A stretch of DNA of 64,000 bases, from IMG/VR virus record IMGVR_UViG_2737471844_000002, positions 1-64,000 of that record. The stretch is one strand, 5' to 3'. Numbering within the stretch: position 1 is the stretch's first letter; each line of letters begins with the position of its first letter. This document shows positions 19,180-42,740 of the stretch, one piece after another. Made by a program: the position numbers and the translations under genes. The stretch comes from a virus (Duplodnaviria; Heunggongvirae; Uroviricota; Caudoviricetes). The notes beneath the pieces were generated by a model. The model saw nothing but the letters and a program-made list of their open reading frames with translations. It did not search any database and was not told the origin of the DNA.

Positions 19180-19225
19180 CCACAGCGGCCCGGTTTTCCG
19201 GGCCGTCTGATATTCGGGATTTGTA

Positions 19226-19966: not shown

Positions 19967-19967
19967 C

Positions 19968-21608: not shown

Positions 21609-21611
21609 TTA

Positions 21612-24908: not shown

Positions 24909-25108
24909 ATGGCCAGAAACGCGCTGTAATCGCCTTTGACGACATAAACGCCTCACGGATGAGGCATTACAGCACCGCACCCCATAAATGCCGTCAGAAT
25001 CGTTTTTAAAAGGGTTTTAAAAACGGTTTTATTTCCCCTTTTATCCTTTCGCGTTATGGCAGGGTGCTGAACACCCTCCACAGTACCCCGTGTTCCCCTT
25101 CCGTCATC

Positions 25109-26629: not shown

Positions 26630-26639
26630 GGAGCGAAAC

Positions 26640-27548
26640 GTGATAGTCAACGTTAAAAACGTCAAACAGATTTTTATCAATCTGAAGGCCACCTTCCAGA
26701 AAGCCTTCGACCAGTCGCCAACTGACTGGCAGAAGGTGGCAATGGAAGTGCCATCAAACGGCAAGGAAAACGACTACAGCTGGTTAAGTCGTTTCCCGAA
26801 AATGCGCGAGTGGATTGGTGACAAGGTCGTCAAATCACTGGCGGCATTTAACTACACCATCCGTAACAAGGACTGGGAAGCCACGGTTGAAGTCGATCGT
26901 AACGACATCGAGGACGACCAGATTATGGGCTATGCCCTTCAGGCGAAAGGGGCCGGACAGTCGGCAGCAGAGCTACCGGCAGATATTGTGGCGTCCCTTA
27001 TCAGTAACGGTTTTACCAATCCCTGTTACGACGGTCAGATGTTCTTTGATACCGACCACCTGGTCGCCGGTAAATCGGTGTCCAACAAAGGCACCAGAAA
27101 ACTCAAAGTTGGCTCGCTTGCCGAGGCGAAAGCCTCCTACGGTACCGCCCGTACGGCCATGCGTAGTCTGAAAGATGACGAAGGCGCATCCCTCAAAATT
27201 CGCCCGAATCTGCTGGTTGTGCCACCGGCGCTGGAGGATGACGCGAACTACCTGATGACCGCCGAGAAGTTCCCGGACGGCACGCCGAACCCGTACCGCA
27301 ATACCGCCGAAGTGCTGGTGATGCCGGAGCTGGCGTCGGATTCTGCGTGGTTCCTGTTTGACACCACCAAACCGGTGAAACCGCTGATTTATCAGCTGCG
27401 TAAAAAGCCTGTTTTTGTGGAGCAGACGGACTACAACAGCGACAACGTGTTCAAGCGTAAGAAGTTCCTGTTTGGTGCCGAAGCGCGCTGTAACGGCGGT
27501 TACGGCTTCTGGCAGATGGCATTTGGTTCTGATGGTACGACGGAGTAA
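26640..27548 (+). CDS. Major head subunit (Mu T-like)
   Basis: AAGGAG RBS then GTG at 26640; about 300 aa. Confidence 0.7.
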   Translation: MIVNVKNVKQIFINLKATFQKAFDQSPTDWQKVAMEVPSNGKENDYSWLSRFPKMREWIGDKVVKSLAAFNYTIRNKDWEATVEVDRNDIEDDQIMGYALQAKGAGQSAAELPADIVASLISNGFTNPCYDGQMFFDTDHLVAGKSVSNKGTRKLKVGSLAEAKASYGTARTAMRSLKDDEGASLKIRPNLLVVPPALEDDANYLMTAEKFPDGTPNPYRNTAEVLVMPELASDSAWFLFDTTKPVKPLIYQLRKKPVFVEQTDYNSDNVFKRKKFLFGAEARCNGGYGFWQMAFGSDGTTE

Positions 27549-27551
27549 TGC

Positions 27552-27893
27552 ATGGAAAAGGTGATTGAAATTACCGCCCGCCGTGAGGGTTTTCGCCGCT
27601 GCGGTGTGGCACACAGTGCAACCACGAAGGCATGGCCTGTGGATGCGTTCACCCCGGAACAGCTGGCGGTGCTGAAGGCTGACCCCATGCTGATTGTGGT
27701 GGAGCGCGATAAAGCGTCCGGCCAGAACGACGCGGCCCAAAGTGATGAACTGGCCGCACAGCTGGATGCCGAGCGTCAGAAAGTCAGCGAACTGACGGCG
27801 CAACTGGAAGAAGAACGCCAGAAAGTCAGTGAACTGACCGCACAGCTGAACGCCGCACAGAAAACACAAAAAGCGGACAAAAAGGAGAAGTAA
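27552..27893 (+). CDS. Hypothetical head-region protein with duplicated coiled-coil segment
   Basis: RQKVSELTAQL repeated twice. Confidence 0.45.
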   Translation: MEKVIEITARREGFRRCGVAHSATTKAWPVDAFTPEQLAVLKADPMLIVVERDKASGQNDAAQSDELAAQLDAERQKVSELTAQLEEERQKVSELTAQLNAAQKTQKADKKEK

Positions 27894-27896
27894 CCC

Positions 27897-28328
27897 ATGT
27901 CTTACGCCACACCGGAACAGTTCATCAGGGCGTTCAGTGAACGCGAGGCGCGCACACTGACAGATGAAGACATGACGGGATTCATCGACGAAGAAAAGCT
28001 GGCCTCCGCGCTTGCGCGTGCCAGTGCCCAGATTGATGGCTATCTGGTGGGGCGTTACCGGACCCCGTGGCCTGACAGCCCGGGGATTCTGGTGGGTTAC
28101 TGCTGCGATATCGCCCGCTATCACCTGGCGACCGATTACCGTATCAGCTCAGAAGAAATTCAGATGCGCTACCGGGACGCCATCCGCTTTCTGGAGAAAG
28201 TCGCGGCAGGACAAATCAACCTCGGGCGGGATACGTCCGGCAGTGTGATCCAGTCATCGTCACAGGTGCGTATCCGCTCCGGCTCCCGTCAGTTCGGGCG
28301 TGAGTCCACGCGGGGAGGTGCATTCTGA
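27897..28328 (+). CDS. Head-tail joining protein (Mu gp36-like)
   Basis: Position; family assignment from memory. Confidence 0.45.
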   Translation: MSYATPEQFIRAFSEREARTLTDEDMTGFIDEEKLASALARASAQIDGYLVGRYRTPWPDSPGILVGYCCDIARYHLATDYRISSEEIQMRYRDAIRFLEKVAAGQINLGRDTSGSVIQSSSQVRIRSGSRQFGRESTRGGAF

Positions 28329-28381
28329 TTACTGAAATTGAACGGGCGCTGGTTGAGCGTCTGCGTTGTGGTCTGGGGCAT

Positions 28382-28963
28382 ATGGTGCGGGAAGTCCGCA
28401 CCTATGCCGGTGAACTGGATGAAGACCCGGGCCGGATTGTTCGCAGCCTTCCGGCAGCCTGGGTGACGTTCGGTGGTATCGTGAAAACCGAACGCTATTC
28501 CACGTCACGCCGGAAATACATTGCCACCGGACGCTTTGTGGTTGTGGTGGGTGATTACAACACCCGCAGCGAACAGAGCGCCAGACAGGGAGGCACCGTC
28601 CGGGATGAGGTCGGGACAAACCAGCTGGTTGAATCCGTCCGTCGCCTGCTGACCGGTCAGGATTTGGGACTGGAGATTGATTATTTCGAACCCGGGCGGG
28701 TCAGGACGCTGTTTAACACCGGCGTGGCAGAGCGGGCAATGTCCGTGTTTGCCTGTGAGTTCGATACCCGCTGGGTGGAGCACGCGCTGGAGAACGGCAA
28801 ATGGCCGGAGCGTGGCGCAGAAGCGGACCGCCTCTTCAACCGCTACTACGGCAGGCTGTCAGACCCTGCCCCGGATTTACTGCGAATTGGTACGCAATAC
28901 GGTGCAGATATCTGTGGTCTGGATGAATTAAGAGAGCAACAGCATGAACAAAATGAAGGTTAA
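28382..28963 (+). CDS. Head-tail region protein (Mu gp37-like)
   Basis: Position; start uncertain. Confidence 0.45.
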   Translation: MVREVRTYAGELDEDPGRIVRSLPAAWVTFGGIVKTERYSTSRRKYIATGRFVVVVGDYNTRSEQSARQGGTVRDEVGTNQLVESVRRLLTGQDLGLEIDYFEPGRVRTLFNTGVAERAMSVFACEFDTRWVEHALENGKWPERGAEADRLFNRYYGRLSDPAPDLLRIGTQYGADICGLDELREQQHEQNEG

Positions 28964-29186
28964 GGCGGCTCCCGGGGTGAAGTTCCCGATGGAGGATAAC
29001 GCCCGGAAATACATCACCACGGAAGCGGTGACCGTTGAGAACACCGCTTATTACCGGCGCGCCGTTCAGGACGGTGACCTGATTCTGGTGAAAGATGAGC
29101 CTGAAATCACCGTGACGGCTGAACAGGACGCCGTGCAGGTAAAAGCGAAGGCGAAGAGAGAGAAACAGGTGGATTCCGATGAGTGA
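28944..29186 (+). CDS. Small conserved protein before the tail sheath
   Basis: Position. Confidence 0.45.
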   Translation: MNKMKVKAAPGVKFPMEDNARKYITTEAVTVENTAYYRRAVQDGDLILVKDEPEITVTAEQDAVQVKAKAKREKQVDSDE

Positions 29187-30600
29187 AATTCAGTTTGACA
29201 CCATTTCGGGCGGTATCCGTAAGCCCGGTGTGCATTTTGAGTTTAATACCCGGCTGGCCGTTAACACGCTGCCGGGTAATGAACAGCGTGTTCTGGTGAT
29301 TGGCCCGATGCTGTCAGGCGGCACCGCCACGCCCCTGAATGCCGTTTCCGTGTATTCCGAAGACGAAGCGGATTTGTATTTCGGGGCCGGTTCGCTGGCC
29401 GCTGCAATGGCGCGCGCGGCCATTAATGCCAACAGCTATCTGCAACTGGATGTTATCGGTATTGCAGACAGTGGCGCAGGAAAGGCAGCAACCGGCGCGG
29501 TTACCGTCAACGGTACGGCAATCAGCAGCGGAACACTGTCGGTATGGGTTGCCGGTGAGCAGGTTTCGGTGGATGTGGAAACCGGTGATGGACCGTCGAA
29601 AATCATTCCGGCACTGGTGGAAGCAATGACGCATACGCCCTCGCTTCTGGTGACGGGGGAATACAAATCGGAAGCCTCTCAGCTGACGGTGACCACCCGG
29701 ACCAAAGGAGCCTGGGGGAATGACATCACCCTGTCAGCATCCACCACGGCAGGTGGTCTGACCGTGAGCGCCACGCCGATGGCGAACGGTGAAATGGACC
29801 CGGATATTCAGCCCGCACTGGATGCGGTCTTTGCCGCCGGTCACAACATTCTGATTTGTCCGTTCAGTACCACGCCAGCCCTTGCCGCCCTGAAGCAGCA
29901 TCTGGAGAAAACCGGGAACGCGATGGAACAGCGCGGCGCGATTGGCTGTGTGGGCTGGACGGGCAGTCTCGGAAACGGGATCACCCTGGCAGCAGGTGTG
30001 AACAGCGGGCGCGTGTCCGTCCCCTGGTATCGCGGCTCCGTGAAGCTGCCAGCGGTGCTGGCCGCCATCTACGGCGCTGTGATGGCGGGCGAGGAAGACC
30101 CGGCGCGTCCGCTGAACTCGCTGGCACTGTCCGGACTGGATGTGGTCGCCATGTCACAGCGTGAAAGCCGTAACGAGCAGGAAAACGCCCTGCATAACGG
30201 CCTGACGCCGGTTGAGGTTGGCCCGGGTAACACGGTGCAGATTGTGCGTGCGGTCAGTACATACACGGTTAACGCACAGGGCGTGACTGACGTCTCGTTA
30301 CTGGATATCACGTCCATCAGAACGCTGGACTACACCCGCAAGGCGTGTCGCGAGCGCATCAGCCTTCGCTTCCCGCGCGAAAAACTCAGCACCCGCACTA
30401 TCGCCAAAGTGGAAAGCGAACTGTATGACGTGCTGATCAAGCTGGAGGAAGCGGAGATTCTGGAGAACGTGGAAGCGAACAAGGCAAAGCTGCGCGTTCA
30501 GCGAAACGGGAAAGATGCAAACCGTCTCGACTGCGTGGTTCCGGCGGATGTGGTTAACGGCCTGCATGTGTTTGCCGGCCGCATCGACATGATTTTGTAA
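29179..30600 (+). CDS. Tail sheath protein
   Basis: 473 aa, followed by the tube gene; contractile-tail gene order. Confidence 0.8.
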   Translation: MSEIQFDTISGGIRKPGVHFEFNTRLAVNTLPGNEQRVLVIGPMLSGGTATPLNAVSVYSEDEADLYFGAGSLAAAMARAAINANSYLQLDVIGIADSGAGKAATGAVTVNGTAISSGTLSVWVAGEQVSVDVETGDGPSKIIPALVEAMTHTPSLLVTGEYKSEASQLTVTTRTKGAWGNDITLSASTTAGGLTVSATPMANGEMDPDIQPALDAVFAAGHNILICPFSTTPALAALKQHLEKTGNAMEQRGAIGCVGWTGSLGNGITLAAGVNSGRVSVPWYRGSVKLPAVLAAIYGAVMAGEEDPARPLNSLALSGLDVVAMSQRESRNEQENALHNGLTPVEVGPGNTVQIVRAVSTYTVNAQGVTDVSLLDITSIRTLDYTRKACRERISLRFPREKLSTRTIAKVESELYDVLIKLEEAEILENVEANKAKLRVQRNGKDANRLDCVVPADVVNGLHVFAGRIDMIL

Positions 30601-30612
30601 GGAGCGCGGTAA

Positions 30613-30987
30613 ATGTCCATTAAAGAATATGTCGGCTCGATTGTGCTGGAGGTGGACAGCCAGGAAATCGAGATCACCGACTTTGATGTTCAGATCAACA
30701 CCGGGCGAAAGCTGGTCAAGACCATGAACAAAACCGGCAGGGCCAAAGGCTTTGCCCGTGGCATTGCCACTTACGATATTTCTGTTTCGGCGGTTATCCC
30801 TGATACCAACGAGCCGGACTGGGAAAATCTGGAAGGTGTGAAAATCTCAATTTATCCGCTCAGTAACAGCGGTAAGCGCACCTCCTATCTGGACTGCTTT
30901 ACTGTTGAAGTGGGTGAGAAATACACCGTCGACAGTGAAGCGAAAATTGATATCAAAATGGCTGCACTCAGGAAGGTGACGGGATGA
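30613..30987 (+). CDS. Tail tube protein
   Basis: 124 aa directly after the sheath. Confidence 0.7.
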   Translation: MSIKEYVGSIVLEVDSQEIEITDFDVQINTGRKLVKTMNKTGRAKGFARGIATYDISVSAVIPDTNEPDWENLEGVKISIYPLSNSGKRTSYLDCFTVEVGEKYTVDSEAKIDIKMAALRKVTG

Positions 30988-31367
30988 CTTTGATTAATAC
31001 ACAGACCGGCGAGCTGTCTGATGGCGTGGTGTTTAACGGCACCGTTCATAAAAACTTTGAGCTGCGTCTGCCGGTCATGCGTGATAACGGGCAGGCACTG
31101 GAAGAAACTGAAGAACGCTTTCAGACGGTGGATGGCTTCGCGGCGGATTATTACTACCGCTGTGCGGTGATGGCGGCAACGCTGGTCCGTCTGGGGGATA
31201 TTCCGCAGGAAGAACTGACGGCGGAGCTGTTACACGACAACATGACGCCGGACGATTTTAATATTCTGCTGGCATCACGCAACGTCCTGAAGGTAAAGCG
31301 GAACGGCGGGAATCCCGGCTCGCCGGACTCCGGCTCGCAGTCCTCATCCTCGGGCGCTACGGAATAA
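30984..31367 (+). CDS. Tail assembly chaperone (possible frameshift extension to about 31530)
   Basis: Position between the tube and tape-measure genes. Confidence 0.5.
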   Translation: MTLINTQTGELSDGVVFNGTVHKNFELRLPVMRDNGQALEETEERFQTVDGFAADYYYRCAVMAATLVRLGDIPQEELTAELLHDNMTPDDFNILLASRNVLKVKRNGGNPGSPDSGSQSSSSGATE

Positions 31368-31529
31368 CCGAAGAGCAAATCATGACCATGAGCCGTCCCG
31401 AGTTGGACGGCTGGCTTGCCGCCGTTGACAGGCTGAACGGCGGCGGCTCAGGAAGGAAGGACACCTCACAGACCACCCGCCAGTCATTTAAATCCCTCAG
31501 AAAGAAACGCAGAAAAGGTAAGCAGAAAA

Positions 31530-33812
31530 ATGGCCGGTAATTTCAAAGTTGGCATGACCCTGACTGCGAAGGACGAAGCCTCGCAGGTTCTGGAAAAGGG
31601 ACAAAAACAGGTTATCAAAGCCACCGAAGGTGTAACAAAGGCAACCCGGAAGGCAGGCGCAGAGCAGAAGCGTACCGAGCAGGAAAGCATTAACAGCACG
31701 AAAAAGGCCGCAAAAGAGATACAGCGTGCCGCCCGTGCCCGGGAAACGCTCGGTATTCGTGCAGAGCGTGAGATCCGGCGTGAAATTTATCTGACGGTTG
31801 CCAGTTATAACCGTCTGGCCCGCGCCGGTTTTGAATCTGCGCAGGAGCAGGAGCGCGCCATGCAGGCCACCCGGGAAAAAGCCCGGGCACTCAAGCGCGA
31901 ACTGGATGGCGTTACTCAGGCTCAGATGAAGATGGCGAAAACGCCTGTTATCCCTGAACAGGGACGTTTTGCCCGTGCGGCTGCATTTGGCGGGAATGCC
32001 GTGACAATAGGCGGAGGTATCGCGGCAGGTGCTGCCATTATGGCGCAGCCAGTCAAAAAGCAGATGAGCTACGAACGCCAGCTGGCAATGATGGCCAATA
32101 CCGCCTTCAGTGATGGCGGTCTGGAGGGGCGCAGGGCTGGTCTTGAGCAGATGAAAAGCAGCATCCGTAACGCAGTGACCTATGGTGGCGGCACGAAAGA
32201 GGATGCGGCCGAAACGCTGGATGCCCTGCTGAAAGATGGCGGTATTTCATTTGAAACAGCCAGTAAGTGGCTGCCTGAACTGATGAAATACGCCACGGCT
32301 TCTGGTGCATCAGCGACAGACCTGGCTAATGTGATGCTTAAGGGCAAAAAGACGTTTGGATTCAGGGATGAAGATATTTCCACCGTTCTGAATATGGCAA
32401 TTGCAGCGGGCAAAGAAGGCAGCTTTGAGCTGAGCGACATGGCCCGATGGTTATCTTCGCAGCTGGGGTCAGCGTCAGCTGCGGGGATGAGAGGCAAGGA
32501 TGATTTTGTCAAGATTCTGGCACTGAATGAAGCTGCCGCCATCACGGCGGGAAGCAGTGATGAGGCCGGAAATAACGTGTTTAACCTGCTGGCTAAACTG
32601 ACCAGCCACGATATTGAAACAGCGGCAAAGAGCATTGATTACAACGGTAAAGGAATTGATTTTTCCGGCACGCTGGTTCAGGCGCGTGAACATGGACTTG
32701 ATCCGATAGATGCGCTGTCCAGCCTGATAGACAAAATCGTTGCCAGCGATAAACGCTTTCAGGAGTTGCAAAAGAAACTGGCCTCCGCCCGGGATAAGGG
32801 CGAGCAGACAGCTGTTTATGATTCGATGGCAAAACTCCTTGAAGGCTTTGGTGTCGGGAAACTGGTTGCAGACCAACAGGCGTTAAAAGCGTTGCTGGCT
32901 TACCGTAACAACCCGGAATACCGGAAAAAGGTTGAAGACGCGATTAATCAGCAGCGCACCCTGCCGGAAGGCCAGCGCGCGGGTGATGTGGATTTTAACT
33001 TCATATCCGGCCTCAATGACTTTAAAACCGAACAAGCTAAAAACACGTTTGAATTTTCACAAATGGACAGCGTGAAAAAGCTGGCTGATGCGTCCGGTAC
33101 TGTGGCCGATGCCATAAGCTGGGCGGGTGAAAAATTTCCGGGGCTGACCACAGCAGTGGTGGGTGCCACGACCGCCATTGAAGCGATGACCGCAGCGGCT
33201 CTGACATGGGCCGGGATCAAAATCCTGACCGGGGGTAAACCTGGTGGCAAGGCTGGCGAGGTTGTCGGTGATGTCATTGAAAACACGGTCAAAAAAGGCA
33301 AAGGATTTAAAATCCCCGGCATTGCCGGTAGCCTGCTTTCTTTCGGTGGCACCGTTACGGCACTGGCCACCGCAACCAGCCCGGAAGAAGACGCCGCCGT
33401 CGAAGGAAGCGAGGAGCGCTGGAAAAATATACGGGCTAAATATCCTCAGTGGCTGATTGATGCTGCCCGTGAAAAATATCAGCCGTGGTGGCAGTTTGGC
33501 GAAGGTTACTCAACAGAAAACGAGAAATGGATCCAGCAGTATCTTGACGAACTGAAAAAAACCGGGGTTATCGCCGGTGATTCTCTGCCGACACCAGAAC
33601 AAGTCCGACAGCAAGCCGGAATGGCAGCGTCTGAAACGGCATCAAAGCAACCCAGACGCATCACCCAGCCGGAATACCTCACGCACTGGGGACCACCTGC
33701 CAGCCCCATTAATTTCACCACACAACTGGTGCTCGATGGTCAGGTCATAGCGGAGGCAGTGAACAAATACAACCTTCAGGACGGCAACAGAGGCACGGGA
33801 GGAACTTACTGA
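31530..33812 (+). CDS. Tail tape measure protein
   Basis: 760 aa, Ala/Gly-rich and coiled-coil. Confidence 0.8.
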   Translation: MAGNFKVGMTLTAKDEASQVLEKGQKQVIKATEGVTKATRKAGAEQKRTEQESINSTKKAAKEIQRAARARETLGIRAEREIRREIYLTVASYNRLARAGFESAQEQERAMQATREKARALKRELDGVTQAQMKMAKTPVIPEQGRFARAAAFGGNAVTIGGGIAAGAAIMAQPVKKQMSYERQLAMMANTAFSDGGLEGRRAGLEQMKSSIRNAVTYGGGTKEDAAETLDALLKDGGISFETASKWLPELMKYATASGASATDLANVMLKGKKTFGFRDEDISTVLNMAIAAGKEGSFELSDMARWLSSQLGSASAAGMRGKDDFVKILALNEAAAITAGSSDEAGNNVFNLLAKLTSHDIETAAKSIDYNGKGIDFSGTLVQAREHGLDPIDALSSLIDKIVASDKRFQELQKKLASARDKGEQTAVYDSMAKLLEGFGVGKLVADQQALKALLAYRNNPEYRKKVEDAINQQRTLPEGQRAGDVDFNFISGLNDFKTEQAKNTFEFSQMDSVKKLADASGTVADAISWAGEKFPGLTTAVVGATTAIEAMTAAALTWAGIKILTGGKPGGKAGEVVGDVIENTVKKGKGFKIPGIAGSLLSFGGTVTALATATSPEEDAAVEGSEERWKNIRAKYPQWLIDAAREKYQPWWQFGEGYSTENEKWIQQYLDELKKTGVIAGDSLPTPEQVRQQAGMAASETASKQPRRITQPEYLTHWGPPASPINFTTQLVLDGQVIAEAVNKYNLQDGNRGTGGTY

Positions 33813-35161
33813 TGGGCTGGGCTGAAAACCTGCAAAACGCCTCCTTTCGTGGCGTGCAGTTTGATGTGCTGAACACGGATGAACAAATCAGCCGCGACCA
33901 TGCGGTCTATGAATACCCGTTTGTTGACGGGGCGGATTTGCACGACCTCGGACGCAAGGCGCGACCGTTCCGCATGACGGCGTTCCTGTGGGGAGAGTAT
34001 TACGAATATAAACTTGAAAAGCTGATCGCCGCCCTGGACGAAGGCGGTGCTGGTGAGCTGATTCACCCGGTTTATGGCTCCGTACCATCGGTGATTGTGA
34101 CCGGCTACAGTATTCGCCATGACGCAGAAAGCCCGGACAGCTGCACCATCGACATGAGTTTTCTGGAGAACCGCACCGGCAGCGCGTTGTTCAGCACCCC
34201 GTTACCGGAGCTGTTTGCACAGCAGTTATTTGAAGAACTGGATAAGTTACTGGCACAGTTAAGCGAATTATTTGACGCTGTTACGGCCCCATTAAAGACC
34301 ATTAACAGCGTGATTAAAAAAATCCAGACGGTACGCGCCACGCTGGTGAATACCCTGCTGACGTTCAAAAGCGATTTTCTCTCATCCATCGACAATATGA
34401 TGTCGCTGGCCAGCGAACCAGGAAAGTTCATCGGCGGGCTGGCAGAGGTGCTGGAAATCCACACGTCAGATGTCGGGCACGCGGTGCCGGTGCTGGAGCG
34501 TACTGATTCCGCCACCACGACCGGACTGACCGGGGAAGACAGCGTCGCCAGTTCTGCGACAGTGATGACCTGCTGGAATGAGGTGATGGCAGATATGGAT
34601 GAGCTGGTCGCGCTGCCGGTCGCACTGGTCAGCGGTGATAAAACGCCGTCTGTGGCACTTCCGCCGGATGCGTCCGTGGAAGACGTGCAGGACGTGAAAG
34701 CGGCTTATGCGGTTTTGGCAGCCTCAGAGCTGGCCAGCGTGGCGACGGCGATACTGTCAGATGAGGCCCAGTCAGAGCCGCTTATACCGGCGGATATCGG
34801 GCGACTGGTCGGGGATGTGCGCACCCGCTTACAAGCAGCCATCACGCTGTTCCGTGAACGCTATGAAGGCGAACGCGAACGGATAACCGAAACCGCATCA
34901 CCGCTGGGGCTGATGTACCCGGAAATCATTCAGAGCATGAAGAACGTGGCGGCATCCGTGCAGGATGTCGGCCTGCTGGTTCTGTCTCGCCGCCCACCAC
35001 TGACGCAGAAACAGGTGCAGGCGGACAGTTGCCTGCTGTTGCTGGCGTGGCAGTGGTACGGTGATTACAGCCGTGCGGCAGAGCTGCAACGTCTGAACCC
35101 GCAGCTGCGTGACCCGAACAACATAACTGCCGGGATGGTGATTAATGCCTATGCAAAATAA
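33812..35161 (+). CDS. DNA circularisation protein (Mu N-like)
   Basis: Position after the tape measure. Confidence 0.65.
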   Translation: MGWAENLQNASFRGVQFDVLNTDEQISRDHAVYEYPFVDGADLHDLGRKARPFRMTAFLWGEYYEYKLEKLIAALDEGGAGELIHPVYGSVPSVIVTGYSIRHDAESPDSCTIDMSFLENRTGSALFSTPLPELFAQQLFEELDKLLAQLSELFDAVTAPLKTINSVIKKIQTVRATLVNTLLTFKSDFLSSIDNMMSLASEPGKFIGGLAEVLEIHTSDVGHAVPVLERTDSATTTGLTGEDSVASSATVMTCWNEVMADMDELVALPVALVSGDKTPSVALPPDASVEDVQDVKAAYAVLAASELASVATAILSDEAQSEPLIPADIGRLVGDVRTRLQAAITLFRERYEGERERITETASPLGLMYPEIIQSMKNVAASVQDVGLLVLSRRPPLTQKQVQADSCLLLLAWQWYGDYSRAAELQRLNPQLRDPNNITAGMVINAYAK

Positions 35162-36356
35162 CGATGACAAAATCAGCCTGGTCATTGCCGGAAGGTCGCA
35201 TTCTGACTGGAGCAGTTATCGTATTGACAGCGATTTCCTGAAAGCCGCCGACGGCTGGCAGCTTCAGCTGGGACTGCCTGAAAAGGTGTTCCCGGCGGAT
35301 ATCGTCCGGGGTGCGCCGGTCCGTTTGCAGGTGGGAGACGAGACGGTCCTCAGTGGTCGCGTGGACAGCGTGCGCCGCAGTGTATCCCGTCAGAGCTGCA
35401 CGCTGACCCTGTCCGGGCGTGATGATGCCGCCATCCTGGTGGACTGTGCCGCACCGGTGTTCAGCGCCAATCAGCTGACGCTGGACGAGGTCATCGACAG
35501 GATTGTCAGACCGCTGGGGATACAGCGCATCCGTATTCAGGCGTCCGGTGTGTCACGTAATGACAAGGTCGTTATAGAGCCGGGGATGCGTGCGTGGGAT
35601 GCACTGGCTAAAGCTGCCGCCGGTCGCGGCTTATGGCCGTGGTTTGAGCCTGACGGTACGCTGGTTGTGGGTGGCCCTGACTACACCACCACGCCGGTGG
35701 ATACACTGATTATGAAGCTGGACGGCACCGGGAACAACTTGATGGAGCTGGACGATACCCGGTCCATTAACGGCTGTTTCTCCGAGCTGACGGTGCTGGC
35801 CCAGAGCCACGCCCGCCGCGCAGACAGCAAGAAACAGGTGGCCGTGGTGCCGCTGGATATCTGGAACGAGGACGGCAGCGTGCGCACATTATCCGGGCAG
35901 GACAGCGGTAATACAGGCAGTGGTCAGACAGGCATTCATAACATGAAAGCCGTGGCCACCGACCCCACCGTGGATTATTACCGCCCGCAGATAATCACCC
36001 AGGGCGACACCAGTAACATGGAGCAGGTGAACTGGCGCGCAAAAAAAATGATGAGTGATGCCCGCCTGTCGGGGCTGGATATCGTCGCACTGGTTGCAGG
36101 CCATCGCACGGCGGATGGTGTCCTGTGGCAGCCCGGCCAGCGTGTGCGGATTGTCAGCGAACCCCACGGCATCGATGCCATTTTTTTTCTGATGGGCCGC
36201 GAGTTCAGCGGAGGCCGGAGCGGGCAGACAACCCGGCTCCGCTTTAAGGAGGATGGCGTGTGGATACCTGATGCCTTCCCGCGCGAGAAGAAACGCCATC
36301 ACCGCAGGGGCAAAAAGAAAAAAGAGGTCGCCATTGTTAAGGTCTGGGAGAAATGA
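35145..36356 (+). CDS. Baseplate hub protein (Mu P / P2 D-like)
   Basis: Position and size. Confidence 0.65.
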   Translation: MPMQNNDDKISLVIAGRSHSDWSSYRIDSDFLKAADGWQLQLGLPEKVFPADIVRGAPVRLQVGDETVLSGRVDSVRRSVSRQSCTLTLSGRDDAAILVDCAAPVFSANQLTLDEVIDRIVRPLGIQRIRIQASGVSRNDKVVIEPGMRAWDALAKAAAGRGLWPWFEPDGTLVVGGPDYTTTPVDTLIMKLDGTGNNLMELDDTRSINGCFSELTVLAQSHARRADSKKQVAVVPLDIWNEDGSVRTLSGQDSGNTGSGQTGIHNMKAVATDPTVDYYRPQIITQGDTSNMEQVNWRAKKMMSDARLSGLDIVALVAGHRTADGVLWQPGQRVRIVSEPHGIDAIFFLMGREFSGGRSGQTTRLRFKEDGVWIPDAFPREKKRHHRRGKKKKEVAIVKVWEK

Positions 36357-37006
36357 TGTGGGACAAGGTTAATCAGCGCATACAGCAGGCACTGGCCGCC
36401 GTTCGCCAGGCATTCAGGGTGGTGACCGGTACGGTGGACAGTTCGACCAAAGTACAGCTACTTCAGCTGAACGGGCTGGCAGGCGAACAGCTGGACGGTG
36501 CGGAGTATTTTCAGCATTACGGCCTCACCACATCCCCGCCGCCCGGCTCGATGGGTATTGCCGTTCCGCTGAATGGTAATACCTCCCATACCGTCGTCGT
36601 GGCCACAGAGCACGGCGCATATCGCCTGACGGAACTGAAACCCGGCGAGGTGGCGCTGTATACCGACGAAGGCGCGAAAATCGTACTGAAGCGCGGGCGG
36701 GTTATTGAGCATGAATGTGATGTTTATCGCGTGAAATGCAAACGCTATGAGGTTGAGGCAGAGGAGAACGCCGCATTCACGACACCGTTACTGACAGTCA
36801 GCGATAAGCTGACTGTGGAAGGTAAAATCACCGGCAACGGTGGCATGGCCATCCGTGGAGGCAAGAAATACGCTGCCACCTTTGAAGGCAATATCAACCA
36901 TGTGGGCGGTGTGATTACCTCCGTTGACGTCACCATTAATGGCGTTAAAATCGGAACACACAAACACGATACCCCTCACGGCATATCCGGCCTGCCGCAT
37001 AATTAA
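36353..37006 (+). CDS. Baseplate spike protein (V-like)
   Basis: Position; resembles the P2-like V protein at 59666..60247 in its C-terminal part. Confidence 0.6.
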   Translation: MMWDKVNQRIQQALAAVRQAFRVVTGTVDSSTKVQLLQLNGLAGEQLDGAEYFQHYGLTTSPPPGSMGIAVPLNGNTSHTVVVATEHGAYRLTELKPGEVALYTDEGAKIVLKRGRVIEHECDVYRVKCKRYEVEAEENAAFTTPLLTVSDKLTVEGKITGNGGMAIRGGKKYAATFEGNINHVGGVITSVDVTINGVKIGTHKHDTPHGISGLPHN

Positions 37007-37059
37007 GTGCTGAACACCCTCACCTGATTCTGACCTGTCCATGCTGCCAGACTGGCGGC

Positions 37060-37410
37060 ATGGACCAGACGATTTCACCTGCAACCGGCGACTACGAACG
37101 CCGCCGGATTTACACACTCCATAACGCGGTTTATCTGCGACTGGCGACACCGCTTGGCAGTTACTGGGCGGATGCGTCGCTGGGGTCACGCCTGCACGAG
37201 CTGAAGCGGGAAAAAGACGTTCCCCGTGTTCACAGACTGGCGGCGCAGTATGCCAGCCAGGCACTTCAGCCACTGCTCGATGACGGGCGGGCAAAATCCA
37301 TTACCGTTGACACGAAAGCGGGCCAGCGCGGCTGGCTGTTGCTGTTAATCACCGTCACGGATAACGCGGGCACACCGCAGACGTTTGAACACCCTGTGAG
37401 GATTATGTAA
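37060..37410 (+). CDS. Baseplate wedge protein (W / gp25-like)
   Basis: Position and size. Confidence 0.55.
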   Translation: MDQTISPATGDYERRRIYTLHNAVYLRLATPLGSYWADASLGSRLHELKREKDVPRVHRLAAQYASQALQPLLDDGRAKSITVDTKAGQRGWLLLLITVTDNAGTPQTFEHPVRIM

Positions 37411-38489
37411 TGCCGTTTCCTGTTCCGGGCGTTGCTGAAAACACAGAACGCCAGCTACGTGATATCGCTAACGCCCTGCCGGGAGAAACCATAGACACCG
37501 GCGCTGACAGCGATTACCGCATTCGTGCAAATGCTGTATCCGGCGTGGCGGAGGGGCTTTTTATGCATCAGGGATGGATCCTCCGTCAGGTGTTTCCTGA
37601 CACGGCAGACCCTGAATATCTGGAGCTGCACTGTCGCACGCGCAATGTTTTTCGTAAAAAAGCAACGGCCTCATCCGGTCCGGTGGTGATTACCGGCACA
37701 CCCGGTAAGACGCTGCCAGCCGGTGCGGAAATTCGTGGTGAAGGTGTCAGCGTGGCCACCACAGCAGACTGCACCATCGGTGATGAAGGCAGCGCAGAGG
37801 TGACGGTAAAAAGCACCGCTACGGGGGCACAGACGAACGCATCCGCGACGCAGACGGCAACGCTGGTCAGTCCGCCGGAAGGCATCAACAGCACGGTGAC
37901 GATTAAATCCCTGACCGGCGGAACGGACAGGGAAAGCGACGCTGACCTGCTGGCGCGTTATCTGGATATTCTGCGCAGGCCGCCCGCTGGCGGTAATAAA
38001 TATGATTACAAACGCTGGGCGCTGGAGGTGGATGGCGTTACGTCTGCATATGTGGAGCCATTGCGCAGAGGGAAAGGTACTGTTGATGTGGCCATTACGT
38101 CAGCCAATGACATCCCCTCGCAGGAACTGATTAATGCCGTGCTGGCACATATTGAGGAAGTCCGCCCGGTGACAGCGAAGGACACGATGGTACTGGCTCC
38201 GACGAAAAAAGCCGTTGATTTCGTTGTCCGGGTAAAAACCAGCGGCCTGACCGTTGAGCAGATAAAACCGCAGATAACTGGCGTTATCACGGATTTCATG
38301 AACCGACTGGCGCCGGGGCAGGAATTAATTATTTCACAACTGGAAACCCAGATTTCACTCATTTCCGGTGTGAGTGACAGAAAAATAATCACGCCTGACG
38401 GGAATGTAAAAGCCGTGATTAATGCGTCAACGTGGGAATGGTTGCGTCCGGGGGATATTGATATTCAGCCATTTCCCCGGGAGGGTTAA
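37410..38489 (+). CDS. Baseplate J-like protein
   Basis: Position and size. Confidence 0.7.
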   Translation: MPFPVPGVAENTERQLRDIANALPGETIDTGADSDYRIRANAVSGVAEGLFMHQGWILRQVFPDTADPEYLELHCRTRNVFRKKATASSGPVVITGTPGKTLPAGAEIRGEGVSVATTADCTIGDEGSAEVTVKSTATGAQTNASATQTATLVSPPEGINSTVTIKSLTGGTDRESDADLLARYLDILRRPPAGGNKYDYKRWALEVDGVTSAYVEPLRRGKGTVDVAITSANDIPSQELINAVLAHIEEVRPVTAKDTMVLAPTKKAVDFVVRVKTSGLTVEQIKPQITGVITDFMNRLAPGQELIISQLETQISLISGVSDRKIITPDGNVKAVINASTWEWLRPGDIDIQPFPREG

Positions 38490-38492
38490 TTC

Positions 38493-39065
38493 GTGAATAC
38501 AGTCGATTTATTCCGCGCCATGCTGCCGCCGGTCAGTTATGACCTGAACGGGAAATATATTTCCGCGGAGCTGACAGCCGAGGCTAACGTCATGGAGGCC
38601 GTGAAGGCCTCAGCGGCGCGCGTTCTGGCACAAATCACCCCGTTGCAGGCATCGATGACGCTGTCCGACTGGGAGCGCGTGTACGGTGTTGTCCCCCGTG
38701 AAGGGGCAACCCAACAGGAGCGGCGGCAGAACATCCTGGTAAAAATGGCGGCAACGGGCGGGCTGTCCATTCCCTATTTTAAAAATCTGGCCGCAAGCCT
38801 GGGATACACCATAACGATAACCGAACCACGAGCCTTTCGCACCGGGGTAAATCGTTGCGGTGACCGTCTGTTTATCCCTGAAATGCGCTGGGTATGGCAG
38901 GTCAATGTTATTGGTGCAAAAACGCCGGTATACCGTTTCAGAACGGGCGCATCTGCAACAGGTGAGCCGCTGACGGCCTTTGGTGAATCCATTTTAGAAA
39001 ATACCTTTAAAGACCTTAAACCGGCTTTTACAGACTGTTATTTCACGTATGAGGATAAGCAGTAA
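38493..39065 (+). CDS. Tail protein I-like
   Basis: Position and size. Confidence 0.6.
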
Positions 39066-39994
39066 TGCAGAATTTAATTCCTCCGGTGAATACGCCGGAT
39101 CAATTGTTTCACGATGGTGACCCCACTCAGGGCATTGAGGGCACTATTGTTTATGCTGAACACATGAATAATCAGCAGGGAGCCATTCGTGACCTGCAAC
39201 AGGAAATTATTAATGTGCTCCGTGCGGCTGATATATCACCGGACCCGAAGAAACAAAATCAACTGCTTGATGCTATATCGCAATATGTCGGGAAAAAAGT
39301 TCCTGACGCATCATTAACGAAGAAGGGCATCGTTCAGCTCAGTAGCGCAACAGACAGTGATTCAGAAACGGAAGCAGCCACACCAAAGGCAGTAAAATCA
39401 CTGGCGGAAAAAATAACAGAATTGCAGGGAGTGGCTTTACCGGTAGGTACCCCAATACCGTGGCCGTCTGATTCAGTGCCACCCGGCTATGCCTTAATGC
39501 AGGGGCAGAGCTTTGATAAAGGCTCTTACCCTAAACTTGCAGCTGCCTACCCATCCGGGATTATCCCGGATATGCGGGGCTGGACAATTAAGGGTAAGCC
39601 TGCCAGTGGTCGTGCTGTATTGTCTCAGGAGCAGGACGGCATTAAATCACACGCCCACAGTGCCAGTGCATCCAGTACGGATTTGGGGACGAAAACCACA
39701 TCGTCGTTTGACTACGGAACTAAATCAACAAATAACACAGGTGGTCATAATCACGGTGTTGGTGAAAATGTTTCTGTCAGTGCCGGCAGTGGCAAAACAG
39801 TAAATATGAGTACCGGCACCGTAAATCTTTACACCAAATCTGCTGGCGCTCATGCGCACACTGTCGGCATTGGTGCTCATGTGCACACTGTTGCTATTGG
39901 TTCACACGGACACACCGTCACTGTTAACGCTACTGGTAACGCAGAAAACACCGTCAAAAACATCGCATTTAACTATATTGTGAGGCTTGCATAA
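39065..39994 (+). CDS. Tail fibre protein
   Basis: [21 protein letters not shown] collar motif; Gly/Thr/His-rich C-terminus; segment shared with the P2-like H gene. Confidence 0.8.
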
Positions 39995-40569
39995 TGACTT
40001 TTAAAATGAGCGATAAAGCACGGACCATGCGTGTATTTAATTTTCTTGAAGATACAAAAGAATTTATCGGCAGTGGTGACGCTTATATACCGCCTCATAC
40101 CGGATTACCCGCAAACTGTACGGATATTGTACCGCCGGAAATTCCCGAAGGTTTTACGGCAATGTTTGATACTGCTGACAATTCATGGCGTCTGGTAGAA
40201 GACCATCGGGGGGAAACAGTTTATTCAACGGAAACCGGAAATGCAGTCCCGATATCTGAACTGGGGGAACTTCCTGAAAATGTCACATTTATTGCACCAG
40301 ACGGAGAATACCAGCGCTGGGATGGCAGTCAGTGGGTGACGGATGAAGAGGCGAAGCGTGATGCGCTGATTAATCAGGCGGCAGAAAAGAAAACCAGCCT
40401 GCTGAAACAGACTGGAGAACAAATCGCAATCTTACAGGATGCTGTTGATTTTGGTGAAGCAACACCAGAGGAACAGGAGCAACTGACAGCCCTCAGAAAA
40501 TTACGAATAAAGTTAAATCGTATTCAACCGGAAAATGCACCAGATATCGACTGGTCAGACTTTGAATAA
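39994..40569 (+). CDS. Tail fibre assembly chaperone
   Basis: Directly follows the fibre gene (ATGA overlap). Confidence 0.7.
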   Translation: MTFKMSDKARTMRVFNFLEDTKEFIGSGDAYIPPHTGLPANCTDIVPPEIPEGFTAMFDTADNSWRLVEDHRGETVYSTETGNAVPISELGELPENVTFIAPDGEYQRWDGSQWVTDEEAKRDALINQAAEKKTSLLKQTGEQIAILQDAVDFGEATPEEQEQLTALRKLRIKLNRIQPENAPDIDWSDFE

Positions 40570-40614
40570 ATTCCACAGCCGCCAGCAGGCGGCTTTTTAT
40601 CATTCAGAGGCTCT

Positions 40615-42039
40615 ATGTCTGTATTAATTTCAGGGGCGCTGATTAATGGCGCTGGCGTTCCGATGGCGGAATGCAAAATTTATTTAGATGCACTGGTTAA
40701 TACCAGTGAAGTGGTCACTGAGTCATTTGCGGTTATTGAAACCGATGCGGCGGGACAGTATGCCTTTGAAGCACAAAAAGGCAAATACACCGTACACATC
40801 AAGCAAAAGAACGGCCCCAAGTGCTGCGTGGGTGACATTTCGGTTTACGACGACTCAAAGCCCGGCACGCTGAACGACTTTCTGACTGCCCTTGATGAAA
40901 GCGATTTAAAGCCGGATGTAGTGAAACGCTTTGAGGAACTGGCGCAACAGGCACAGCAGAGCGCGGAAGCCGCCGCTGGCAGCGAACAACAGGCAGGACA
41001 ACACGCCACTGATGCACAGCAGATTAAGGCCGACTGTCAGGCGCTGGCGAAAGACGTACAGCAGAACGCCGACGCGGTTGCGGAGGGTAAACAACAGGTC
41101 GAAAATCTGGTCTCACAGGTTGAGAATGCCGCCGAGGAGGTAAAAAAGGACGCTGAAGCTGCTAAACAGGCCGCATCTGATGCAGAGCATGTCAGGGAGG
41201 ATATTGACACCGCGTTATCTGCGACACTGAAAACGGCGAATCGTTTATCAGAGCTGGCTGATGAAGGTGAAGAGGCTCAGCAGGAATCCCGTGATAATCT
41301 TGGACTGAAAAGCGCTGCCACAATGACGCCACAGAGCGACATTCGTGACCGGACTGAAGGTCGTCTGGCGACACCTGGCGCATTTGGTTTTGGGCATATT
41401 TTTTTGCCCGCAGAGCGGATCCGTTTTAACACAGAGGATGATTTTCTGTCCTGGGTAAGGAATGCGACGCCGGGTGAATATTTTGTTGAGGGTGGCAGTA
41501 AAATCATATCCGGAGGTGTGTTGTTTAACGGGGTGGTCAGCATCCGGTGGGTTGAGGCACGCAATAATCCACCGGAACCGCGATATACATCAAAGGCCAT
41601 TATTTTCTACGGTATCAATGGCGATGTTTATTACAGCCGCTACTGGACAACAGGTAATGGTTATCTGACTGGCTGGGAAAATCTGAAAATTACCTCACAG
41701 GACATTATCTCTCTTCTGTCCGGTATTGCTCCCGGTACCACGGACGGCTGGTACGGTGCAGGCAGTCTTGTACTGGCGGCTTATAACGGTAAGGGAGACG
41801 CAGACACCGACCGCCGGATAAAACGCGGTTACAGCTATCCGGGGTCACGCCTGAGCGCGGTTGAATTTATGTGTCACGGCACGACCGGTAGCGGGGTTGG
41901 ATATAACGGCAGCGTTTCCGTATATGTGCGGAGTTCTGGTGGTGGTATGCCGGGGTCATATCGGGCACTGTCAGGTGATGGGCTCGGGTCTGCCGGGTCA
42001 GCCAGTGTCATGATTGGTTTGTTCATACGTATTGCGTAG
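40615..42039 (+). CDS. Second tail fibre-like protein
   Basis: Long Ala/Gln-rich coiled coil then Gly-rich C-terminal domain; followed by a second chaperone. Confidence 0.55.
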   Translation: MSVLISGALINGAGVPMAECKIYLDALVNTSEVVTESFAVIETDAAGQYAFEAQKGKYTVHIKQKNGPKCCVGDISVYDDSKPGTLNDFLTALDESDLKPDVVKRFEELAQQAQQSAEAAAGSEQQAGQHATDAQQIKADCQALAKDVQQNADAVAEGKQQVENLVSQVENAAEEVKKDAEAAKQAASDAEHVREDIDTALSATLKTANRLSELADEGEEAQQESRDNLGLKSAATMTPQSDIRDRTEGRLATPGAFGFGHIFLPAERIRFNTEDDFLSWVRNATPGEYFVEGGSKIISGGVLFNGVVSIRWVEARNNPPEPRYTSKAIIFYGINGDVYYSRYWTTGNGYLTGWENLKITSQDIISLLSGIAPGTTDGWYGAGSLVLAAYNGKGDADTDRRIKRGYSYPGSRLSAVEFMCHGTTGSGVGYNGSVSVYVRSSGGGMPGSYRALSGDGLGSAGSASVMIGLFIRIA

Positions 42040-42046
42040 GTGTTTT

Positions 42047-42613
42047 ATGGAAATAAAACGCATCGAAAATGCGCGTTATCTTGAAAATGGCGCGATTGAC
42101 TGCGGGGTGTTGTTTGATGGCATGGATGAACCGGTTCCGTATACGGCAACTGCCACGGATACAGCAGAGACAGGGCAGCGAGTCTGGCAGGAGCTGCAAA
42201 GTGGGAGATGGGGAGAAATAACGCCGTTCACCGTCACGCCAGAGATGCTGGAAGCAGCAAAAGCAGCCAAACGCCGGGAAATTGAAGCATGGCGCACAGA
42301 ACAGGAGGCGCAGCCATTCATTTTTGAATGGAACGGCCATAGCTGGAACGGGGGACCGGATTCTATGGCCCGTCTTTACCCGGTGGTGATGTCAGCAAAA
42401 TCAGTCACGGCACGGAAATCTATGGTATGGGGTGATGCGGAAAATCAGCAGGTAAAGTTGTCAATGCAACAACTGGATGAACTGCTTACTGCAATGGTTC
42501 AGGCGCAGGTCGATCGCAATGACGAGATTTATCGCCGTCAGCGGGAGATGAAGGAAACACTGGCGGGGCTGGATGACCTGAACACCATCAGAAGTCTGCC
42601 CATCAGTGAATAA
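42047..42613 (+). CDS. Second tail fibre assembly chaperone
   Basis: Position after the second fibre gene. Confidence 0.65.
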   Translation: MEIKRIENARYLENGAIDCGVLFDGMDEPVPYTATATDTAETGQRVWQELQSGRWGEITPFTVTPEMLEAAKAAKRREIEAWRTEQEAQPFIFEWNGHSWNGGPDSMARLYPVVMSAKSVTARKSMVWGDAENQQVKLSMQQLDELLTAMVQAQVDRNDEIYRRQREMKETLAGLDDLNTIRSLPISE

Positions 42614-42649
42614 AAACGTAAGTGGTCAAATAAAGTGCTGTATCACCTT

Positions 42650-42735
42650 ATTTTGCGCTTTATTCTGGATTTTTTTTATTATGTCAACCGTTCAAAATAA
42701 AGCGCTAAATAGTCCAGAAAAAATCGCGAAGTTAC
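42650..42735. repeat. Right end of the Mu-like element with inverted copy of the terminal motif (AGTCCAGAA at 42711..42719)
   Basis: Reverse complement of the right terminus matches the left terminus in register at 17 of 26 positions when the right terminus is taken as 42736. Confidence 0.5.
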
Positions 42736-42740
42736 ACACG
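42736..42740. repeat. Target-site duplication ACACG, right copy
   Basis: Identical to 5862..5866. Confidence 0.6.

Follow-up and report, generated by a model that had tools for sequence, protein, structure and literature searches.

In the Stx2e phage phiP27 (genes L54-L57, NC_003356) and in Rac-SA53 (tail1-tail4, KU052037), Mu-type baseplate genes are followed by a fibre, a Tfa, a StfN-type fibre and a DUF4376 gene, and this order runs through to the element end. For Alteromonas V22/A5 and Campylobacter CJIE1, DUF4376 proteins have been described that act as chaperones of fibres. In the cryo-EM structure of Mu, the N-terminus of gp49 sits on a docking loop of gp48, and this loop, which Mu gp48 carries once per wedge, serves the Mu S fibre (PMC11915804). 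In Ur-lambda, twelve StfN domains ring the gpV/gpM junction of a non-contractile tail (PMC12617516). The Vibrio myophage XM1 has six gp40 trimers attached at the neck via their N-terminal domain; gp40 is said to reinforce head-tail attachment, and the authors suggest a role in host sensing or attachment (PMC10457771). Two long tail fibres are present on the Mu-like baseplate of Shigella phage Sf14 (PMC11821841).

The window analysed here, a stretch of 64,000 nucleotides of viral DNA, contains an E. coli Mu-like transposable prophage of 36,870 bp (5867..42736, + strand, TG...CA termini), the right end of which has a gene order identical to that of phiP27 and Rac-SA53. Mu-transpos_C, HTH_Tnp_Mu_1, AAA_22, gpT, Gp36, Gp37 and Gp48 were all present, and a sheath gene (Phage_sheath_1) points to a contractile tail. 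The element sits inside gene A of a P88-like prophage: excising 5867-42740 in silico gave an intact 935-aa gpA ORF, the first 140 aa of which are 99.3% identical to gpA of phage P88. Insertion at this non-att site together with the TG...CA termini fits a Mu-like transposable phage; the flanking repeat is 4 bp (CACG) compared with the 5 bp typical of Mu. At position 18, TTCTGGACT is common to the two ends. The element reaches its right terminus (...CGCGAAGTTACA) at 42736, 123 bp past the stop of the DUF4376 gene where the original prediction had put it at about 120 bp, and the same terminus was found in three relatives, each with unrelated flanks. The features of the element, and of its right end in particular, are as follows.

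5867..42736, + strand: whole Mu-like prophage, with Mu-type transposase, B-like ATPase, gpT, Gp36, Gp37 and Gp45-48 family proteins
38493..39065, + strand: baseplate wedge protein of the Mu gp48 family (Pfam Phage_Mu_Gp48, E = 4.8e-31)
39065..39994, + strand: fibre 1, 309 aa (Pfam Phage_fiber_2 and Collar domains)
39994..40569, + strand: chaperone 1 (Tfa1), lambda Tfa-type assembly protein, 191 aa (Caudo_TAP, E = 5.5e-33)
40577..40604, + strand: terminator-like hairpin from a terminator scan, a 7-bp GC-rich stem with a 4-nt loop, then TTTTATCATT
40615..42039, + strand: fibre 2, 474 aa (phage_tail_N, PF08400, E = 1.7e-47)
40615-40899, + strand: collar-type anchor domain of fibre 2, aa 1-95, lambda StfN-like
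40912-41250, + strand: long helix of fibre 2, aa 100-212, predicted from the AF2 model
41377-42036, + strand: globular tip of fibre 2 in the AF2 model, aa 255-474
42047..42613, + strand: probable chaperone 2, DUF4376 protein, 188 aa from ATG (DUF4376, E = 3.3e-15)
42614..42736, no strand assigned: element right end, with inverted GCGC..TTCTGGA copies (putative transposase sites) and the terminus ...GTTACA

The four ORFs from fibre 1 to the DUF4376 gene all lie on the + strand, and the predicted arrangement of two fibre-plus-chaperone pairs in the same orientation was thus recovered. The genes are tightly packed: the stop of the gp48-family gene overlaps the fibre 1 start as TAATG, the Tfa1 start overlaps the fibre 1 stop, and the DUF4376 gene starts 8 nt past the fibre 2 stop codon, which overlaps an AGGTG ribosome site. 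Both genes of cassette 2 have ribosome sites and are closely coupled; the mechanical ORF of the DUF4376 gene begins at a TTG at 42014. An Rfam scan of 38000-43200 returned a sole sub-threshold match, IS009 inside Tfa1, which was dismissed at 23.7 bits as far under the gathering score of 117.

Fibre 1 combines a Mu S-type N-terminal region (residues 44-111, 41% identical to residues 47-141 of Mu S) with a lambda Stf-type distal tip containing a collar domain and His-x-His repeats (residues 109-309, 55% identical to lambda orf-314, the Stf C-terminus). Tfa1 is 56% identical over 187 aa to lambda orf-194 (Tfa), and at the nucleotide level cassette 1 shares about 80% identity with lambda stf/tfa. 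Fibre 2 is built differently. Its PDB sequence matches were the Ur-lambda Stf N-terminus (9e7m, E = 2.9e-16) and, for aa 2-206, the collar spike gp40 of XM1 (7kjk, E = 2.9e-07); the N-terminal domain of the AF2 model was superimposed on 9e7m with a TM score of 0.90 and an rmsd of 2.1 Å. A StfN collar domain followed by a predicted coiled-coil helix is the lambda-type Stf architecture. The tip was modelled with a pLDDT of about 80-90 for aa 260-360 and lower elsewhere, which is moderate confidence, and a PDB fold search with the model gave no significant match; with such a fold and no known relative, the fibre 2 tip is here no more than a putative receptor-binding domain.

Both fibres are directly followed by a small protein with a Tfa-type domain, Caudo_TAP in one case and DUF4376 in the other. 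The DUF4376 protein matched phrog_1141 (E = 2.1e-83), and phrog_1807 was matched by both it and Tfa1; from its sequence, it is probably the assembly helper of fibre 2. The two chaperones had no detectable similarity by BLASTP (E = 0.47) and a repeat search found no direct repeats between the cassettes, and the idea of a tandem duplication of one cassette was therefore dropped. Judged by these comparisons, the cassettes are two different kinds of module and not duplicates or alternatives of one fibre. Their predicted virion anchors differ as well, being a Mu S-type N-terminus in one and a lambda StfN/XM1 gp40-type collar in the other, and the fibres are best read as distinct appendages.

No part of an invertible switch of the Mu/P1/e14 type (Din family: Gin, Cin, Pin) was found, be it invertase, crossover sites or opposed cassettes. 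Gin and Hin gave only noise in tblastn against all 64 kb (best E = 0.74), and phmmer with Mu Gin and Mu Mom (NC_000929) against the window ORFs of at least 60 aa returned nothing; with Mu Gin, phmmer did recover Gin in the Mu control and a Gin-like invertase in the Erwinia locus L016. The expectation that the right end lacks a recombinase was thereby borne out, and a mom-type modification gene is absent as well. The search for inverted crossover sites that had been proposed as a check gave the same picture: the best match to a 26-bp gix probe in 38401-42800 had 10/26 mismatches, equal to shuffled sequence, compared with 0 mismatches at both borders of the Mu G segment. A generic repeat search detected only weak inverted pairs (71-76% complementarity). 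No cassette is oppositely oriented, and the two fibres have separate starts and separate N-terminal anchors. Two assemblies and every relative examined showed the cassettes in the same orientation as the window.

The hairpin at 40577..40604 lies in the 45-bp spacer that separates the cassettes. Relatives whose Tfa is of the lambda type keep this hairpin; where the Tfa is of the Mu-U type, an unrelated hairpin and T-run take its place, and good ribosome sites beside the hairpin are conserved with both hairpin types. In phiP27, the fibre cassettes are not separated by a hairpin. A sigma-70 scan upstream of fibre 2 found no promoter, the pattern TTAT-N6-ATAA, which we take to be that of the Mu C-site, has zero occurrences in the whole element, and a comparison of the late intergenic gaps with the 3' end of Tfa1 gave no convincing shared 8-mer. 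With a terminator-like hairpin in front of it and no promoter found, cassette 2 could be expressed at a low level or conditionally.

The layout is not peculiar to this element: it is the standard right end of an E. coli Mu-like lineage and is shared with phiP27 and Rac-SA53. A gp48-family gene, a fibre, a Tfa, a phage_tail_N fibre and a DUF4376 gene, co-directional and at the element end, make up the phiP27-type module, and the four-gene module followed by the element end was found in phiP27, Rac-SA53, E. coli C5 and STEC316. The same layout occurs in all 10 close Mu-like relatives (IMG/VR loci with a gp48 identity of at least 88%) that reach far enough and have a StfN-type fibre in the second slot; an unrelated ORF fills this slot in two other close relatives, L029 and L031. 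Neither Gin, by phmmer with the Mu protein, nor Mom was found in any close relative. Cassette 2 has matches in about 4% of complete E. coli genomes. A third cassette in the relative L032 was rejected, as it lies outside the right terminus of that element and belongs to a neighbouring prophage. A survey of genome contigs for gp48 by a degenerate pattern yielded only 18 mostly distant loci and thus says little on frequency; among them, an Erwinia tracheiphila locus carries an inverted second set and an invertase, and two enterobacterial loci carry Mom without an invertase.

Both genes of cassette 2 are under purifying selection: dN/dS was 0.20 for fibre 2 against its E. coli C5 orthologue and 0.07 for the DUF4376 gene, similar to baseplate genes. 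Across the lineage, identity is 88-99% for the anchor of fibre 2 (aa 1-95) and only 30-52% for the tips, with the exception of the E. coli C5 copy, which has the same tip (97%). In other E. coli prophages (clusters P0049-P0053), the fibre 2 tip is also joined to a P2-H-type anchor (PF12571).

Taken together, the right end probably encodes a fixed two-appendage module for host recognition that lacks an invertible switch. Fibre 1 would be the equivalent of Mu S, whose N-terminus docks to the gp48 wedge loop in Mu. Fibre 2 would be a lambda Stf-like side-fibre module that is complete in itself, with an Ig-like N-terminal domain whose homologues oligomerise as a collar, around the tail ring in Ur-lambda and around the neck in XM1, followed by a presumably trimeric coiled coil and an exchangeable globular tip folded with the DUF4376 helper. 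Since the anchors differ, the two fibres need not compete and can share one virion; from the anchors we infer that both may be displayed on it at different docking sites, with two receptor specificities available at once, compared with Mu, which alternates between two through Gin. The anchors would stay constant in the lineage while tips and helpers are swapped by recombination, so that specificity evolves, and the hairpin between the cassettes would attenuate transcription and not stop it fully. Co-display, the docking site of fibre 2 and receptor binding by its tip all belong to this inferred part. In a contractile tail the sheath covers the tube, and the docking site of the lambda type is therefore not available to fibre 2. 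More tentatively, and with less confidence than even odds would express, the side fibres could form a collar at the neck or above the baseplate, so that two receptors are contacted from two heights, with the hairpin setting the fibre ratio and G inversion replaced throughout the lineage by permanent dual display.

The original prediction had proposed that two co-expressed fibres broaden the host range. Both cassettes are intact and under purifying selection, and simultaneous use is plausible; with a hairpin between the cassettes and no separate cassette-2 promoter in our scan, co-expression is only a possibility. The idea fits two fibres with different anchors but not two forms of the Mu fibre used in place of inversion, and the host range may be broader as a result. 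That two interchangeable baseplate fibres compete for the same six wedge sites, with mixed virions in place of G inversion, appears quite unlikely. The two genes are indeed intact, share a strand and come right behind the baseplate genes, and Sf14 carries two long fibres on its Mu-like baseplate (PMC11821841), but in sequence and fold fibre 2 has the StfN/XM1 gp40 collar domain instead of a N-terminus of the Mu S or P2 H type, the S-type N-terminus is present in fibre 1 alone, and Mu has a single gp48 docking loop per wedge. An inversion switch driven in trans, by an invertase of the host or of a co-resident prophage such as Pin, is conceivable in principle, as Din-family invertases can complement one another. 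It is nevertheless extremely improbable here: the best gix/hix match is at chance level, both cassettes are complete same-strand genes with their own starts, and no inverted orientation was seen in the window, the two assemblies or the relatives.

Two further explanations concern cassette 2 itself. It is unlikely to be a largely silent passenger behind an operon terminator, kept mainly as material for recombination. The GC-rich hairpin and T-run right after Tfa1, in a place that also closes the fibre operons of Mu and lambda, the lack of a promoter-like site in the scanned region upstream of fibre 2 and the replacement of the slot in L029 and L031 would agree with such a role; the dN/dS values of 0.07-0.20, however, do not, nor do the ribosome sites conserved beside both hairpin types or the presence of the same module in phiP27 without a hairpin, and a constant anchor behind differing tips is what is expected if the anchor must fit the virion. 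We also give little credence to a structural or sensing role of fibre 2 as a whisker or collar at the neck, in which it would, for example, stabilise the head-tail joint or retract fibres instead of being a second receptor-binding protein. XM1 gp40 shares anchor and coiled coil with it, sits on the neck and is said to reinforce the head-tail attachment, but the XM1 authors themselves suggest host sensing or attachment, and the fibre 2 tip is hypervariable among close relatives, is exchanged with P2-H-type baseplate fibres and has a dedicated chaperone, all of which are hallmarks of a receptor-binding tip.

The layout is not new, as it is common in E. coli prophages and was already deposited in the phiP27 record, and collar-anchored spikes on a simple myophage are already known from XM1; none of our findings overturns current understanding. 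E. coli Mu-like prophages do not as a rule have the canonical Mu arrangement, an invertible G segment with mom; in one of their lineages, two unlike fibres form a fixed pair in its place. Should both be displayed, two surface structures would be recognised at once, which would bear on the prediction of prophage host range from sequence and on the engineering of Mu- or P2-type particles with two specificities; the pattern of constant anchors and swappable tips gives exact junctions for this, at about aa 95 in fibre 2 and about aa 120 in fibre 1. The arrangement also raises the structural question of where a collar domain of the lambda StfN type binds on a sheathed tail.

Compared with phiP27, fibre 2 is 50% and the DUF4376 protein 71% identical, with 63% identity between the fibre 2 anchors. 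Identity falls to 23-41% for the sheath and baseplate proteins, and no similarity to phiP27 was detectable for gp36 and gp37 of the neck. Unlike the element described here, phiP27 and Rac-SA53 integrate at att sites, and phiP27, which has an HK97-type head module unlike that of Mu as well as a cos site, is not transposable. The module occupies the place of the Mu G segment (S-U / U'-S', gin, com-mom), directly after gp48, and shares with it the S-type N-terminal region of fibre 1 and the principle that tip and chaperone can be exchanged behind an anchor that stays constant. It differs from Mu in having no gin, gix sites, inverted second cassette or mom, and its second fibre does not correspond to an alternative S C-terminus, since the gene is complete and has another anchor.

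Sf14 sets a precedent for the joint display of two fibre types on a simple Mu-like baseplate; the Sf14 fibres, however, have no chaperone genes and are both apparently attached to the baseplate. XM1 likewise has a simple Mu-like baseplate, and gp40 (PDB 7KJK) a homologous N-terminal domain and coiled coil; attachment at the neck is shown for gp40 and would be one possibility for fibre 2. The gp40 tip is tailspike-like, unlike that of fibre 2, which has no PDB match. Of the neck proteins of our element, gp36 had PDB matches to a DUF1320 protein and to gene product J of Mu, with no XM1 chain among them, and gp37 had no match. With Ur-lambda Stf/Tfa, the element shares the fibre 2 N-terminal domain (38% identity to StfN over 129 aa, then a coiled coil) and, in cassette 1, the homologous fibre tip and Tfa. 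Unlike in lambda, the anchor and tip of one lambda protein are here split between two fibres of a contractile-tailed phage, and the helper of fibre 2 would be a DUF4376 protein in place of Caudo_TAP.

The original prediction had described two fibre-plus-chaperone pairs in direct tandem on one strand at the right end of the Mu-like element, and four co-directional ORFs were indeed found at 39065-42613:

39065-39994, + strand: fibre 1, 309 aa (Pfam Phage_fiber_2 and Collar)
39994-40569, + strand: chaperone 1 (Tfa1), 191 aa (Caudo_TAP, E 5.5e-33)
40615-42039, + strand: fibre 2, 474 aa (phage_tail_N, PF08400, residues 1-134, E 1.7e-47)
42047-42613, + strand: DUF4376 protein, putative chaperone 2, 188 aa from ATG (DUF4376, E 3.3e-15)

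All four proteins fall into tail fibre or fibre assembly families in PHROGs, in agreement with Pfam. One-base overlaps (TAATG) join gp48, the baseplate wedge gene just before fibre 1, to fibre 1 and fibre 1 to Tfa1; a spacer of 45 bp separates the two cassettes, and the DUF4376 gene, with AGGTG ahead of its start, begins 8 nt past the fibre 2 stop. DUF4376 proteins are fibre chaperones according to the literature on Alteromonas phages V22 and A5, and in Campylobacter CJIE1 the fibre acts as receptor-binding protein only with the DUF4376 gene co-expressed. We also considered cassette 2 as a repeat of cassette 1; the two chaperones had no detectable similarity (BLASTP E 0.47), and no direct repeat was significant. 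The cassettes are distinct modules.

An inversion system of the Mu type was not detected. Searching the whole 64 kb for Gin/Hin by tblastn gave no match (best E 0.74), and neither Mu Gin nor Mom, both detected by phmmer in the Mu control, was found in the window. The gix probe, which matched both Mu G-segment borders perfectly, aligned to 38401-42800 with 10 mismatches in 26 positions at best, the level of shuffled sequence. Generic inverted repeats in the region were weak (71-76% complementarity), and the orientation of the cassettes was identical in two assemblies and in all relatives examined. Gin and Mom were likewise absent from all 13 IMG/VR relatives whose gp48 is at least 88% identical. 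The proposed lack of a recombinase ORF was confirmed by these searches, which also gave no crossover sites and no Mu-type DNA-modification gene. Two constitutively encoded fibres in place of inversion are a reasonable reading, and this reading is strengthened because the two fibres bear different anchors.

Near the N-terminus, residues 44-111 of fibre 1 are 41% identical to the constant region of Mu S, which in Mu docks onto a gp48 loop (PMC11915804). The fibre 1 tip resembles the C-terminus of lambda Stf (55% identity), and chaperone 1 resembles lambda Tfa (56% identity). Across the lineage fibre 1 conserves its Mu S-type N-terminus, and two tip-and-chaperone types occur. In E. coli STEC316 fibre 1 (L003 5666-6700) is annotated in RefSeq as two partial pseudogenes; the sequence is a single ORF of 344 aa spanning the N- and C-terminal parts.

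Fibre 2 matches lambda Stf at the opposite end, with residues 1-129 being 38% identical to lambda orf-401. Sequence searches of the PDB aligned residues 1-93 with the N-terminal domain of Ur-lambda Stf (StfN; 9e7m, E 2.9e-16) and residues 2-206 with gp40, the protein that forms the collar spike in the Vibrio myophage XM1 (7kjk, E 2.9e-07). The AlphaFold2 model (40 homologues, mean pLDDT 67.8) consists of a beta-sandwich (2-77), a single long helix (100-212) and a globular domain (about 255-474); the modelled N-terminal domain superposed on 9e7m with a TM score of 0.90 and an rmsd of 2.1 Å, 7kjk being the second match. In Ur-lambda a collar of 12 StfN domains around the gpV/gpM junction bears four trimeric fibres (PMC12617516), and in XM1 six gp40 trimers attach to the neck via the N-terminal domain homologous to that of fibre 2 (PMC10457771). 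Because its N-terminus matches these two proteins, fibre 2 is predicted to be a side fibre held by a collar domain, rather than a duplicate of the baseplate fibre. Comparing the neck proteins with the PDB for a clue to the docking partner, gp36 matched Mu gene product J and no XM1 chain, and gp37 gave no match. The modelled tip of fibre 2 had no significant match in a PDB fold search.

Comparison with relatives points to a conserved anchor and an exchanged tip. The fibre 2 anchor (aa 1-95) is 88-99% identical within the lineage, while shafts and tips share only 30-52% identity, with the exception of the copy in E. coli C5, which has the same tip; outside the lineage the anchor is 63% identical in phiP27 and Rac-SA53 and 42% in lambda. 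The anchor therefore follows the phage backbone, while the tip is swapped. Other E. coli prophages carry the fibre 2 tip (89-91% identity) fused to an anchor of the P2-H type (PF12571), as would be expected for a receptor-binding tip, and we regard the tip as a candidate for this function. Compared with the C5 orthologues, fibre 2 has a dN/dS of 0.20 and the DUF4376 gene one of 0.07 (baseplate genes, 0.07-0.13). Together, dN/dS, anchor conservation and tip exchange are sequence evidence that cassette 2 is likely functional and part of this phage.

Tfa1 is followed by a terminator-like hairpin (AGCCGCC-AGCA-GGCGGCT followed by TTTTATCATT, 40577-40604), which precedes the ribosome site of fibre 2. 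Relatives with a Mu-U-type chaperone have an unrelated hairpin with a T-run at the same spot, so that each cassette 1 type has its own GC-rich hairpin (window 40577-40604; L002, the C5 locus, 7019-7045; L003, the STEC316 locus, 7285-7312), immediately 3' of the first chaperone stop; the ribosome site of fibre 2 follows after about 10 nt. A hairpin also directly follows U in Mu and tfa in lambda; none was found in the corresponding spacer of phiP27. A promoter scan upstream of cassette 2 found none; we infer that cassette 2 is transcribed by read-through with attenuation at the hairpin.

The element as a whole is a transposable prophage of the Mu kind. Its left part encodes a Mu-type transposase, a B-like ATPase and a CI-type repressor; the element also carries gpT, Gp36, Gp37, the sheath protein, Gp48 and, in precomputed Pfam calls for the identical contig, Gp45-47-family baseplate proteins. 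The termini TGT...ACA lie at 5867 and 42736, and both ends carry TTCTGGACT at position 18. The right terminus (...CGCGAAGTTACA) also occurs in three relatives with unrelated flanks, which places the element end 123 bp past the last gene, in line with the predicted 120 bp or so. In silico removal of 5867-42740 joined 5610-5876 and 42741-45291 into an unbroken P2-type replication protein of 935 aa, whose residues 1-140 match gpA of phage P88 in one continuous stretch (99.3% identity). Since the deletion restores a P88-type gpA, the site into which the Mu-like phage transposed is gene A of a P88-like prophage (Xuanwuvirus, P2-family) in its E. coli host; with this replication endonuclease interrupted, the P88-like prophage is probably replication-defective. 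The usual Mu target duplication is 5 bp; here the direct repeat around the element is only 4 bp (CACG, 5862-5866 / 42737-42741), the P88 site without insertion being CAGGCACGCGG. The terminal ...GTTACA is constant in the three relatives, so the missing base does not stem from a miscalled end.

Immediately past gpA, the P88-like prophage carries an actin-like segregation protein, ParM (StbA), and a small Plasmid_stab_B-like protein (45368-46643), a plasmid-type partition pair within an integrated prophage; the variable region past gpA contains an IetA/IetS anti-phage defence pair (47022-50305; PADLOC E 3.6e-89 and 6.6e-41). The H-type fibre of this prophage (62020-64000, running off the window) is 64% identical over 159 aa to fibre 1 and shares its type of tip, with a collar and His-x-His. 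The two co-resident prophages thus have related tips, and recombination between them is possible.

The layout is not peculiar to this element. E. coli C5 and STEC316 contain close relatives with the same four genes; the STEC316 copy ends inside the aga operon, and the C5 copy is truncated at its right end by ISEc12 (IS21-family; L002 9125-11512), 70 bp past the DUF4376 gene. The order fibre, Tfa, StfN-type fibre was found in 10 of the 13 IMG/VR relatives, and the DUF4376 gene in all six that extend far enough. In two others (L029 5123-6223 and L031 11322-12422) the second slot is taken by an unrelated large ORF of at least 366 aa, cut by the contig end, that lacks a phage_tail_N domain; the remaining contig stops too early. 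An apparent third cassette in another relative (L032 13419-15070, fibre and Mu-U-type chaperone) lies outside the element, which ends 2 bp earlier; it probably belongs to another prophage, the target of the sister Mu-like prophage's transposition. Nucleotide matches to cassette 2 occur in 209 of 5,426 complete E. coli genomes, and a protein search returned 1,320 related clusters, chiefly from E. coli, Citrobacter and Salmonella. The tail proteins of phiP27 are only distantly similar to those of the element, and its neck proteins have no detectable similarity. phiP27 has the same gene order, L53 (gp48 family), L54, L55, L56 and L57 followed by attR, and Rac-SA53 likewise has tail1-tail4 followed by att; the architecture is thus already sequenced, annotated and widespread.
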